Source: Escherichia coli
GTDB taxonomy: Bacteria; Pseudomonadota; Gammaproteobacteria; Enterobacterales; Enterobacteriaceae
Direction: 5' to 3' (one strand)
Length of the DNA stretch: 64,000 nt
Assembly: GCF_016903815.1 (NCBI RefSeq)
Contig: NZ_CP069973.1
Part shown: in pieces, positions 5,934 through 56,438 of the stretch
How positions within the stretch are numbered: the stretch's first letter is position 1
How the letters are laid out: each line of letters opens with the position of its first letter
The notes under the pieces: model-generated
Seen by the model: only the letters and a program-made list of their open reading frames with translations
What the model was told of the DNA's origin: nothing
Database searches by the model: none
Made by a program: the position numbers and the translations under genes

Positions 5934-5957
5934 CCTCCGGCATAGCCGGAGGTTTTT
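5934..5957 (+). terminator. Putative rho-independent terminator after yfeW (could alternatively lie inside the right end of the IS200-like element)
   Basis: Stem cctccggc / gccggagg with 3-nt loop followed by TTTTT, 10 nt after yfeW stop. Confidence 0.55.
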
Positions 5958-6033
5958 CAAATGCGCCTATAAGGCTCTCTTACCAGCCGCGCCCTAACAG
6001 GCGCACACGATCTGACATTTGCATCCAACTTCG

Positions 6034-6492
6034 TTACTTACGGCCCGTAAACGGGCTGCCCGGATAGGGAATCGATAACTGCTCTCCCATTTTATCCTCT
6101 TCAAGCTGGTGCTTTATGTAATCCTGTATCTTCGCCGTGTTCTTACCCACCGTATCGACGTAGTACCCTCTGCACCAGAACTCCCTGTTCCTGTATTTGA
6201 ATTTCAAATCACCAAACTGCTCGTAAAGCATCAGACTGCTTTTCCCTTTCAGATATCCCATAAAGCCGGATACGCTCATTTTGGGCGGGATCTCCACAAG
6301 CATATGGATATGATCTGCACAGCATTCAGCTTCCAGAATCCGTACACTTTTCCACTCACACAGCTTTCTCAAAATACTGCCTATTGCTCTACGCTTCTCT
6401 CTGTAGAACACCTGTCTTCGGTATTTTGGCGCAAAAACTATGTGATATTTACAGTTCCATCGGGTGTGCGCTAAGCTCTTTTCGTTCCCCAT
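6034..6492 (-). CDS. tnpA: IS200-type transposase TnpA (Y1 HUH family, 152 aa)
   Basis: ORF track 6034..6543; start trimmed to ATG 6490-6492 (MGNEKSLAHTRWNCKYHIVFAPKYRR...); HUH motif HIHML and C-terminal YY; near-identical to recalled Salmonella IS200 TnpA. Confidence 0.9.
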   Translation of the reverse strand: MGNEKSLAHTRWNCKYHIVFAPKYRRQVFYREKRRAIGSILRKLCEWKSVRILEAECCADHIHMLVEIPPKMSVSGFMGYLKGKSSLMLYEQFGDLKFKYRNREFWCRGYYVDTVGKNTAKIQDYIKHQLEEDKMGEQLSIPYPGSPFTGRK

Positions 6493-6632
6493 TGGGACCC
6501 CCTTTTGATTTCTTGTTTGACACTTGCAGTTGCCAGACCGCAAGGTGTTTTAACAAATCAAAAGGGGTTTTAATAACTGGCTTAAAGCTGAAAGCTTTCC
6601 GGAACCCCCAGCCTAGCTGGGGGTTTTCTGTG

Positions 6633-6668
6633 CACAAAAAGGCCAGTCAGTTGTGATACTGGCTGGCC
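6633..6668 (-). terminator. Putative rho-independent terminator after yfeX
   Basis: Minus-strand hairpin ggccagccagt...actgactggcc followed by TTTTTGTG, about 25 nt after yfeX stop. Confidence 0.6.
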
Positions 6669-40800: not shown

Positions 40801-40925
40801 AGCATGCGGTGGGTACTGGCGTAATGGGCGGGATGATTTCGGCCACTATTCTGGCTATTTACTTCGTGCCGCTGTTCTTTGTGCTGGTGCGCCGCCGCTT
40901 CCCGCTAAAGCCGCGCCCGGAATAA
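37812..40925 (+). CDS. acrD: RND multidrug (aminoglycoside) efflux pump AcrD (1037 aa)
   Basis: ORF track 37812..40925; 12-TM RND architecture. Confidence 0.95.
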
Positions 40926-40930
40926 GCAAT

Positions 40931-40964
40931 AAAAAAGGCGACATGCCAATGTGTCGCCTTTTTC
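40931..40964 (+). terminator. Rho-independent terminator of acrD
   Basis: Stem aggcgaca / tgtcgcct with 8-nt loop followed by TTTTT, 10 nt after acrD stop. Confidence 0.7.
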
Positions 40965-41023
40965 AACTTTCCGATTAAGAACCTGCTCAGCGGGTTCTTG
41001 CTGTTTGTACTTTGTCTCAGGAA

Positions 41024-41083
41024 TTACTTACGAAGCATAACTTCGATAAAGTCTTTCCAGTTCCCCAGTTCACGTTCAATCAT
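41024..41083 (-). CDS. ypfM: Small protein YpfM (19 aa: MIERELGNWKDFIEVMLRK)
   Basis: ATG at 41081-41083 with GAGAGG SD; too short for the ORF track; recognised as the known 19-aa small protein. Confidence 0.7.
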   Translation of the reverse strand: MIERELGNWKDFIEVMLRK

Positions 41084-42978: not shown

Positions 42979-43179
42979 ATGGACTGGCTGGCTAAATATT
43001 GGTGGATTCTGGTGATTGTCTTTTTGGTAGGCGTCCTGCTGAACGTGATTAAAGATCTCAAGCGCGTCGACCATAAGAAATTTCTCGCCAACAAGCCGGA
43101 GCTTCCCCCGCATCGTGATTTCAACGATAAGTGGGACGATGACGACGACTGGCCGAAAAAGGATCAACCGAAGAAGTAA
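42979..43179 (+). CDS. ypfN: Small membrane protein YpfN (66 aa)
   Basis: ORF track 42955..43179; start trimmed to ATG 42979 ([21 protein letters not shown]...). Confidence 0.85.
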
Positions 43180-43184
43180 GCTGA

Positions 43185-43255
43185 GCGGCCGGATAAGGCG
43201 TTCACGCCACATCCGGCCATGATGCCTGATACAGTCTTATCAGGCCTACCCGGCT
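43185..43255. repeat. BIME: two REP (palindromic unit) sequences between ypfN and ypfH
   Basis: gccggataaggcgttcacgccacatccggc (43188-43217) and gcctgatacagtcttatcaggcctac (43224-43249) match the REP pattern. Confidence 0.8.
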
Positions 43256-43259
43256 ATTA

Positions 43260-43958
43260 TTACATCATTTCAATCACATCATCATCGCCAGGCTTACCGC
43301 CGCTTAGCGCTTCGTCGAAATAATGTTTCGGAATGGTATAACGCAAGTGATCCAGGGCAAATTGCATACTGCGATTGTCGATCGCATGGCCTAAATCCTC
43401 CACGATATCCAGCGTCACGTCACCACCGGCACTGATTAACGCTTCCTGCGCCGCAACCGCATGCGCCAGATCGATAACCGGATCTTCACCGCCATGAATC
43501 AAGTGAATTGTCGTGGCTGTAGACGCGGTTTCCGGCAGGCTCGCGTAGCGTCCGTTGAAGGCAATGACGCGCGAAGCAAGGCCCGGTTCGGCTTTAATGC
43601 TCTCCAGCGCCATAATCGCGCCTTGTGAGAAACCGATTAGCGCCGTGGCGTTAGCCCCTACTCCGCTTTGTTTCTGCCAGTAGCGTACCGTTTCAATAAA
43701 CGTCGACATGATGGCATCCACACGCTCCTGGCGATTATCTTCCGTAATACCCTGCACCGAAAACCACTGACGCCCCGCCGGATTACCGCTCGGCTCCGCG
43801 CCACCGACACTCACCACCAGCGCATCAGGAAACAGCGGTGCAAACCAGCTACCTATTTCCCCCATTGCCACCGGGTTATCCCCGACACCGTGGAAAAGCA
43901 GTAACAACTGTTGCGCAGGTTTATCCGGGCTTTGAACAACAAAATGGTCATGTTTCAT
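43260..43958 (-). CDS. ypfH: Esterase/alpha-beta hydrolase YpfH (232 aa)
   Basis: ORF track 43260..43982; start trimmed to ATG 43956-43958 (MKHDHFVVQS...) with AAGGAG SD; GFSQG nucleophile elbow. Confidence 0.88.
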   Translation of the reverse strand: MKHDHFVVQSPDKPAQQLLLLFHGVGDNPVAMGEIGSWFAPLFPDALVVSVGGAEPSGNPAGRQWFSVQGITEDNRQERVDAIMSTFIETVRYWQKQSGVGANATALIGFSQGAIMALESIKAEPGLASRVIAFNGRYASLPETASTATTIHLIHGGEDPVIDLAHAVAAQEALISAGGDVTLDIVEDLGHAIDNRSMQFALDHLRYTIPKHYFDEALSGGKPGDDDVIEMM

Positions 43959-47859: not shown

Positions 47860-47908
47860 TGCCGGATGTTTTGTCAGATGCGGCAAGAACGCCTTATCCG
47901 ACCTACGT
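47860..47908. repeat. REP (palindromic unit) element between bamC and purC
   Basis: gccggatg...gatgcggcaagaacgccttatccgacctac matches the REP pattern. Confidence 0.75.
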
Positions 47909-54998: not shown

Positions 54999-56438
54999 AT
55001 GGAAAATCTTGCTCTGACGACGTTATTGCTGCCTTTTATCGGCGCACTGGTCGTTTCGTTTTCGCCACAACGTCGGGCCGCCGAATGGGGGGTTTTGTTC
55101 GCCGCGCTGACCACGCTGTGCATGTTGTCACTGATCTCCGCGTTTTATCAGGCCGATAAAGTTGCCGTCACGTTGACGTTGGTCAACGTGGGGGATGTGG
55201 CGTTGTTTGGCCTGGTCATTGATCGCGTGAGTACGCTGATTCTGTTTGTGGTGGTGTTCCTCGGTTTGCTGGTCACGATCTACTCCACGGGTTATCTGAC
55301 GGATAAAAATCGCGAACACCCGCATAACGGCACGAATCGTTATTACGCATTTTTGCTGCTGTTTATCGGCGCGATGGCGGGACTGGTACTCTCTTCGACG
55401 CTGCTCGGTCAGTTGTTGTTTTTTGAAATTACGGGCGGCTGCTCCTGGGCGTTGATCAGTTATTACCAGAGCGATAAAGCGCAGCGTTCGGCACTAAAAG
55501 CGTTGCTTATTACCCATATCGGTTCGTTGGGGTTGTATCTTGCCGCCGCCACGCTGTTTTTGCAGACCGGAACGTTTGCGCTTAGCGCGATGAGCGAGTT
55601 ACACGGCGACGCACGCTATCTGGTTTATGGTGGCATCCTGTTTGCCGCGTGGGGGAAATCGGCCCAGCTACCGATGCAAGCGTGGCTACCGGATGCAATG
55701 GAAGCGCCAACACCGATCAGCGCCTATCTCCACGCCGCATCGATGGTGAAAGTGGGCGTTTACATTTTTGCCCGTGCCATTATCGACGGCGGCAATATCC
55801 CGCATGTGATTGGCGGCGTTGGCATGGTTATGGCACTGGTCACCATTCTTTATGGCTTCCTGATGTATTTGCCACAGCAGGATATGAAGCGGTTGCTGGC
55901 CTGGTCGACCATCACTCAACTTGGCTGGATGTTTTTCGGCTTGTCGCTCTCCATCTTCGGCTCGCGGCTGGCGCTGGAGGGCAGCATCGCCTACATCGTC
56001 AACCACGCGTTCGCTAAAAGCCTGTTTTTCCTTGTAGCAGGTGCGCTGAGTTACAGCTGCGGCACGCGCTTGTTGCCGCGTCTGCGTGGCGTATTGCACA
56101 CCCTGCCGTTGCCAGGCGTGGGTTTCTGCGTGGCAGCGCTGGCGATTACCGGCGTACCGCCGTTCAACGGCTTCTTCAGTAAATTCCCGCTGTTTGCCGC
56201 CGGTTTTGCGTTGTCAGTGGAGTACTGGATCCTGCTGCCCGCCATGATTCTGCTGATGATTGAATCGGTCGCCAGTTTCGCCTGGTTTATTCGCTGGTTT
56301 GGTCGCGTCGTGCCTGGCAAACCGAGCGAGGCCGTCGCCGATGCCGCACCGCTGCCAGGATCAATGCGCCTGGTGTTGATTGTACTGATTGTGATGTCGC
56401 TGATTTCCAGCGTAATCGCCGCGACCTGGTTGCAGTAA
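54999..56438 (+). CDS. hyfD: Hydrogenase-4 membrane subunit HyfD (479 aa, antiporter-type)
   Basis: ORF track 54999..56438. Confidence 0.92.
   Translation: MENLALTTLLLPFIGALVVSFSPQRRAAEWGVLFAALTTLCMLSLISAFYQADKVAVTLTLVNVGDVALFGLVIDRVSTLILFVVVFLGLLVTIYSTGYLTDKNREHPHNGTNRYYAFLLLFIGAMAGLVLSSTLLGQLLFFEITGGCSWALISYYQSDKAQRSALKALLITHIGSLGLYLAAATLFLQTGTFALSAMSELHGDARYLVYGGILFAAWGKSAQLPMQAWLPDAMEAPTPISAYLHAASMVKVGVYIFARAIIDGGNIPHVIGGVGMVMALVTILYGFLMYLPQQDMKRLLAWSTITQLGWMFFGLSLSIFGSRLALEGSIAYIVNHAFAKSLFFLVAGALSYSCGTRLLPRLRGVLHTLPLPGVGFCVAALAITGVPPFNGFFSKFPLFAAGFALSVEYWILLPAMILLMIESVASFAWFIRWFGRVVPGKPSEAVADAAPLPGSMRLVLIVLIVMSLISSVIAATWLQ

Follow-up and report, generated by a model that had tools for sequence, protein, structure and literature searches.

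A probable single-copy, partly decayed BIME-2-type element between the convergent genes ypfN and ypfH of Escherichia coli

What fills the short gap between the convergent genes ypfN and ypfH of Escherichia coli, and what might it do for the two genes that end there? In the window, by which we mean the whole 64,000-nucleotide (64 kb) stretch of E. coli chromosomal DNA that was analyzed, ypfN is located at 42979-43179 on the plus strand with its TAA stop at 43177-43179, and ypfH at 43260-43958 on the minus strand with its TAA stop at 43260-43262. The stop-to-stop gap, 43180-43259, is exactly 80 bp. The tested part of the window was 100% identical to E. coli strain 7/2 (NZ_CP023820.1), and the gene coordinates of that record transferred one-to-one to the window. 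An earlier reading of this DNA, made from the sequence only, had given the two genes and the extent of the spacer exactly as we found them.

No repeat feature is annotated at the ypfN-ypfH spacer in the RefSeq K-12 records NC_000913.3 and NZ_CP010444.1. The same two records also have none between yaaX and yaaA, a gap which we take to be the site of an annotated REP, and the missing annotation at the ypfN-ypfH spacer is thus uninformative. Neither the supplements of three REP papers nor a full-text search for ypfN together with REP returned anything specific to this locus.

Analyses of the spacer itself indicated that it contains two inverted repeats, one at 43187-43201/43204-43218 (15-nt arms, 87% complementary) and one at 43224-43231/43238-43245 (8-nt arms, 100% complementary). 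A 101-nt stretch folded well above dinucleotide shuffles on both strands (z = -5.0, with 0 of 200 shuffles as good). Together with a CTAC tail, the two hairpins cover 63 of the 80 bp. The remainder includes the left flank, GCTGAGC (43180-43186, plus strand), which alignments identified as the junction of an 11-bp deletion, and the right flank, CCGGCTATTA (43250-43259), for which E. whittamii and Escherichia sp. E1V33 have a similar sequence and K-12 an unlike one.

To compare these hairpins formally with known REPs, we used blastn-short with the three consensus sequences printed in PMC11208160. The y consensus was 29/31 identical (E 2e-8) to positions 43217 to 43187 on the minus strand, and the first hairpin (REP1, 43187-43218, plus strand) is accordingly a good y-type REP. 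It is an imperfect palindrome within the 30-40 nt of that class, and lies between both stop codons and so is extragenic. Its lower stem of 8 bp is separated by a 2x2 bubble from an upper stem of 4 bp, which is closed by the loop TTCA, and its predicted folding energy is -21.8 kcal/mol. An exact or 3-mismatch search of the sequence with another version of the y consensus gave no match, the GTAG end and two internal positions being different. That tetranucleotide, GTAG, is conserved 5' of the REP hairpin foot (PMC3333891), and REP1 is without it: the window has GAGC before GGCCGG at the place where K-12, E. coli FDAARGOS_1277, E. whittamii and Escherichia sp. MOD1-EC7003 have CCGTAGGCCGG. Relative to K-12, FDAARGOS_1277 and other Escherichia species, the 11-bp deletion removed CTCAACCGTA(G), and REP1's GTAG with it. 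Elsewhere in the window, a second, degenerate y-type REP was seen in the bamC-purC spacer at 47860-47906 (tgccggatg ttttgtca gatgcggcaagaacgccttatccgacctac), with an internal insertion and one tail mismatch.

The second hairpin (REP2, 43224-43245) was assigned from its inverted repeat and its foot matches as a remnant of a z2-type REP, the REP being on the minus strand and its inverse on the plus strand. The z2 consensus matched only positions 43234-43249 (16/16) and the 8-nt 5' foot at 43224-43231 (8/8), and the full-length z2 palindrome is not present, as 11 central nucleotides corresponding to the upper stem and loop are deleted. What is left is an 8-bp foot stem closed by a 6-nt loop, predicted at -10.5 kcal/mol compared with -20.6 kcal/mol for a complete z2. 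REP2 has kept its own copy of the conserved tetranucleotide as the CTAC tail at 43246-43249. Its descent from a z2 unit is indicated by the full z2 found at the orthologous position in E. coli strains GN25, K-12 and FDAARGOS_1277 and in four other Escherichia species. Between REP1 and REP2 lies ATGAT (43219-43223), a 5-nt remnant of an S-type linker that in complete units is the 13-nt AATGGTGAACGAT, with 7 nt deleted. One further blast match to z2, at 55139-55154, fell within a coding region, and we set it aside as a chance match.

The proposal that the spacer consists almost wholly of two REP palindromes was thus borne out as to the two hairpins and the quality of REP1, but REP2 is a remnant without upper stem and loop. 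Variation among strains followed the same division. In six sampled 80-bp alleles the stems of REP1 were invariant, with changes confined to the loop and bubble, and several strains had stem-breaking substitutions in REP2. This pattern, from a small sample, fits a constrained REP1 and a decaying REP2.

The whole element was also recognized by an RNA family model. Rfam RF02564 (naRNA4) aligned end to end at 43187-43246 with 53.1 bits (whole-window E 1.5e-6), and nowhere else in the 64 kb was there such a match. Because 7 linker and 10 apex positions are missing, the alignment falls short of the family's gathering cut-off of 59.5 bits. Orthologous spacers scored higher: 92.7 bits in K-12, 85.7 bits in GN25 and 82-93 bits in four Escherichia species other than E. 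coli (FDAARGOS_1277 was not scored). Taken literally, the match would identify the spacer as a gene for a naRNA4-type small RNA that organizes the nucleoid with HU. We consider this extremely unlikely, as RF02564 amounts to a covariance model for a single y+z2 pair of REP325 and so encodes a generic arrangement that the window allele matches only below the cut-off, and there was no promoter-like site in or beside the spacer. A separate sub-threshold Rfam match in the window, to STnc250 (37.5 bits, cut-off 42), was located at 40925-41044 on the minus strand, overlapping the tiny ypfM downstream of acrD. Two of five orthologous STnc250 matches, in Citrobacter sp. R56 and E. albertii, passed the cut-off, and those of E. 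whittamii, E1V33 and MOD1-EC7003 were at or just under it.

A BIME-2 unit consists of a y REP and a z2 REP in inverse orientation with a short S linker between them. As to the REP types and their orientation, the earlier description of the spacer as a BIME of two REP units was upheld, with the reservations that the second unit is truncated and that the element falls below the Rfam cut-off. The window element has the same REP types, the same inverse orientation and the same extragenic 3' position as BIME-2 and REP325 units. It differs from them in being a single unit, in having a y without GTAG, a linker of 5 nt rather than 13 nt, and a z2 without upper stem and loop. BIME-2 has been described as occurring in multiple tandem copies (PMC3333891), whereas every allele that we saw had one y-z2 unit only. 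Overall, we think it probable that the spacer holds a single-copy, partly decayed BIME-2-type element that acts as a weak two-way 3'-end module and as a passive landing pad for insertion sequences.

How the element came to its present form was addressed by comparison of the same spacer in other genomes. Among 5426 complete E. coli genomes, the ypfN-ypfH locus was present in all but one. The 80-bp allele of the window had a full-length match in 2511 of the 5426 (about 46%), and roughly 2700-2900 genomes had a 109-bp, K-12-type spacer. A 98-bp spacer, found in strain GN25, is a rare type, and E. coli FDAARGOS_1277 has a complete form of 108 bp. In addition, a pattern scan of species-representative genomes recovered the orthologous spacer from 19 genomes. 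The outgroup spacers aligned with that of the window. At the same position E. whittamii, Escherichia sp. E1V33, Escherichia sp. MOD1-EC7003, E. albertii and, as one of the rare E. coli strains of this kind, FDAARGOS_1277 all have a complete unit of GTAG-y, 13-nt linker and z2-CTAC within 108 bp, and in the four species other than E. coli its sequence is CCGTAG-GGCCGGATAAGGCGTTCACGCCGCATCCGGC-AATGGTGAACGAT-GCCTGATGCGACGCTCACGCGTCTTATCAGGC-CTAC.

The presence of the complete unit in other Escherichia species indicates that it is the older state. Judging from these alignments, three deletions gave rise to the window allele: 11 bp on the left side of REP1, 7 bp within the linker and 11 bp at the z2 apex were lost from the complete unit. 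It is likewise probable, as a part of the overall explanation given above, that a y-z2 element was in place between ypfN and ypfH before the Escherichia species split and has stayed there, and that it was later shortened from 108 to 80 bp. The K-12 allele has kept all of the unit but the CTAC tail, and its differing right flank is common to E. albertii.

Several observations on orthologous spacers concern their wider history. The right flank exists in two unrelated versions, CTACCCGGCTATTA and AGGTAATCTGTCTTT (positions 626-639 of locus L001 versus window 43246-43259), one of them in the whittamii/E1V33 type and the other in the albertii/E69 type. The sharing of the two versions with different Escherichia species suggests either an old polymorphism or cross-species recombination. 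In E. coli E69 (CP089930.1; L014 2157-2226), the y-z2 unit has been flipped as a whole with respect to ypfN, so that the best Rfam match is on the opposite strand, and the feet of the unit are chimeric, with GTAGGCCGGATAAG fused to z2 sequence. Such feet are as would be expected from recombination between inverted REP feet. Some Citrobacter genomes and the Kluyvera genomes have REP pairs of their own in the orthologous spacer. In Salmonella enterica subsp. diarizonae (L013), there are only 26 bp from ypfN to the next convergent ORF, the C-terminus of which is unlike that of YpfH, and ypfH seems to be absent or replaced there.

The position of the element is an ordinary one. Convergent gene pairs flank about 60% of E. 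coli REPs, and a REP is present in 207 of 704 convergent spacers (preprint 10.64898/2026.03.23.713779), in agreement with the earlier remark that convergent 3' ends are the typical place for such repeats. REPs and BIMEs have long been described at the ends of convergent E. coli genes, and the ypfN-ypfH element is an unexceptional example.

As two GC-rich hairpins between convergent stops are also what an ordinary bidirectional Rho-independent terminator would present, we considered whether the spacer could be such a terminator that merely resembles REPs. There was no T-run after either hairpin on either strand, and a scan of the window and K-12 alleles returned 0 terminator-like sites. These sequence features already contradict a terminator of that kind, and the spacer matches the REP consensus and the orthologous BIMEs far more closely than expected by chance; this explanation has next to no probability in our assessment. 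In other genera without a REP at this site the spacers were mixed. Kosakonia has a canonical hairpin with a T-run that passed the terminator scan, and the spacer hairpins of Phytobacter and C. amalonaticus failed it. With one of three non-REP genera passing, the argument that the REP replaces a terminator is weak.

Most likely, the spacer would serve as a weak two-way 3'-end hairpin module for the ypfN and ypfH mRNAs. On the model of published REP work, transcription of either convergent gene into the spacer would place GC-rich hairpins at the 3' end of the RNA, where they could block 3'-to-5' exonucleases and also partially stop read-through into the gene opposite, possibly with help from Rho. 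In the 80-bp allele, REP1 would be expected to do most of the work. According to the preprint (10.64898/2026.03.23.713779) and the introduction of PMC3333891, REPs have been reported to terminate transcription partially, in some cases in a Rho-dependent way, and to block RNA decay. The preprint also found no general half-life difference for REP-bearing genes, and REP fragments of 2-4 hairpins were without Rho dependence. The missing half-life difference and the missing Rho dependence mean that the effect at ypfN-ypfH could be small or nil. Moreover, the element tolerates large deletions, and insertions of IS1397 in it persist in natural strains, which argues that whatever function it has is dispensable.

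A role at the level of DNA is an alternative to the 3'-end module. References given in PMC3333891 report BIME-2 elements (y+z2) as gyrase cleavage sites and topological insulators, and the ancestral complete unit has the textbook y-S-z2 arrangement; a gyrase site at this position would relieve positive supercoils between the convergent transcription units. In the window allele, however, the z2 apex and part of the linker are gone, and the allele is a single unit where BIME-2 is described as tandem arrays (PMC3333891). We regard a gyrase site as unlikely.

The decay of the spacer has also changed the distance between the first hairpin and the ypfN stop. The first paired base of REP1 is 7 nt from the stop in the window, compared with 18-19 nt in K-12 and the complete alleles, and on the other side the REP2 stem is 14 nt from the ypfH stop. 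As summarized in PMC12306157, Liang et al. (2015) reported that REPs reduce translation of the upstream gene only if they are less than 16 nt from its stop codon, a distance within which both units of the window allele lie. The shortened gap and the strong predicted hairpin of REP1 would be consistent with an allele-specific translational brake, in which terminating ribosomes would stall at REP1, leading to cleavage of the mRNA and a lower output of YpfN, while K-12-type alleles would escape. It is uncertain whether the published distance was counted with or without the GTAG, and a brake of this kind would operate alongside the 3'-end role, not instead of it. On balance we think such a brake unlikely, if less so than the gyrase site. 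A more extended version, also doubtful and slightly more so, is that the three spacer alleles form a natural allelic series in which the 11-bp deletion of the 80-bp allele would switch on REP-dependent ribosome stalling and so lower YpfN, an effect that neither the K-12 nor the ancestral allele would show.

The sequence-only reading had further suggested that the spacer might be a target for IS200/IS605-family or REP-associated transposases, given an IS200-like element elsewhere in the window. There is indeed an IS200C copy at 5955-6660, between pbp4b and yfeX and just past the pbp4b terminator hairpin (about 5934-5952). Its tnpA is annotated at 6034-6492 on the minus strand, and its 5' RNA structure, STnc490, is located at 6502-6625 on the same strand (Rfam match, 146 bits). 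In favor of a Y1 transposase acting on the spacer, either that of the IS200C or TnpA_REP (RAYT), REPs resemble the subterminal hairpins of IS200/IS605 elements, and in vitro BIMEs are both bound and cleaved by TnpA_REP (PMC3333891). The element belongs to the same REP sequence family as RAYT substrates and REPtrons.

The evidence at this locus did not favor that idea. There was no REP at the flanks of the IS200C, no RAYT gene is annotated within the window and none is nearby, and no IS200 was present at the ypfN-ypfH spacer in the strains examined. In vitro, TnpA_REP requires that a single REP have both a 5' GTAG and a mismatch in its stem (PMC3333891), and here these features are split between the two units: REP1 has the mismatch but has lost the GTAG, and REP2 has the GTAG (CTAC on the plus strand) but has lost the mismatch, its 8-bp stem being perfect. 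Furthermore, in Salmonella LT2 only 1 of 25 IS200 copies is beside a REP, and the REP-targeting insertion sequence families listed in the same paper are IS3, IS110, IS4, IS256 and IS5, without IS200/IS605 (PMC1525189). On this evidence, the suggested transposase link was not sustained, and we judge it very unlikely that the spacer is a substrate or target of a Y1 transposase.

A different insertion sequence does use this site. In six verified strains, IS1397 (IS3 family) was found in the orthologous REP1 apical loop, which in the window is GTTCAC at 43200-43205, in both orientations and with 4-bp target site duplications of GTTC, GTTA or TAAC. The element was in the forward orientation in MEI003 (duplication GTTC), BH100 (TAAC) and ST2747, in which no duplication was seen and an adjoining deletion extended into ypfH. 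It was in the reverse orientation in EcPF15 (GTTC), SK1402 (GTTA) and RM14723 (TAAC), the last of which has a 98-bp-type allele. Four more records had the same match pattern as these insertions and were seen as matches only. That the element is found either way round, with three different duplications and on different allele backgrounds, indicates several separate insertion events. Insertion in the loop with a short duplication agrees with the reported specificity of IS1397 for palindromic units of BIMEs. The window itself has no IS1397, and its spacer is an empty site. In E. coli AST215 (L040 1742-1831), the spacer is 90 bp and consists of the window allele with a 10-bp insert, TGAACTGCAC, in the REP1 loop. 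As the insert exactly matches the initial 10 nt of the left end of IS1397, it looks like a remnant or excision footprint of that element.

REP2 contains a candidate site for a second element. The natural target sequence of IS621 (IS110 family), the bridge-RNA recombinase that targets REPs (PMC11208160), has an exact 11-nt copy, ATCAGGCCTAC, at 43239-43249 on the plus strand, which includes the CTAC tail of REP2 (43246-43249). This motif occurs once in the window, with 0.02 occurrences expected by chance, and the K-12 allele is without it because the CTAC has been lost. On the sequence comparisons, it is IS1397, and potentially IS621, that takes the place of the suggested IS200/RAYT link, in keeping with the spacer being, at the DNA level, a passive landing pad for REP-specific insertion sequences.

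Together, these data indicate that the element matters little in itself, being of a known kind, in a typical place and behaving as expected. Its value is modest, and lies in its being a worked example of REP decay through three small deletions, by which GTAG was lost on one unit and the apex on the other, of REP alleles that split E. coli roughly in half, and of a single REP loop as a recurrent landing site for IS1397; the analysis also corrected the suggested link to IS200. If the translational brake were true, a common strain difference in the expression of the small membrane protein YpfN would be set purely by repeat decay, and if the effect of stop distance is real, the ypfN-ypfH locus would offer a convenient natural setting in which to test how REPs control translation.
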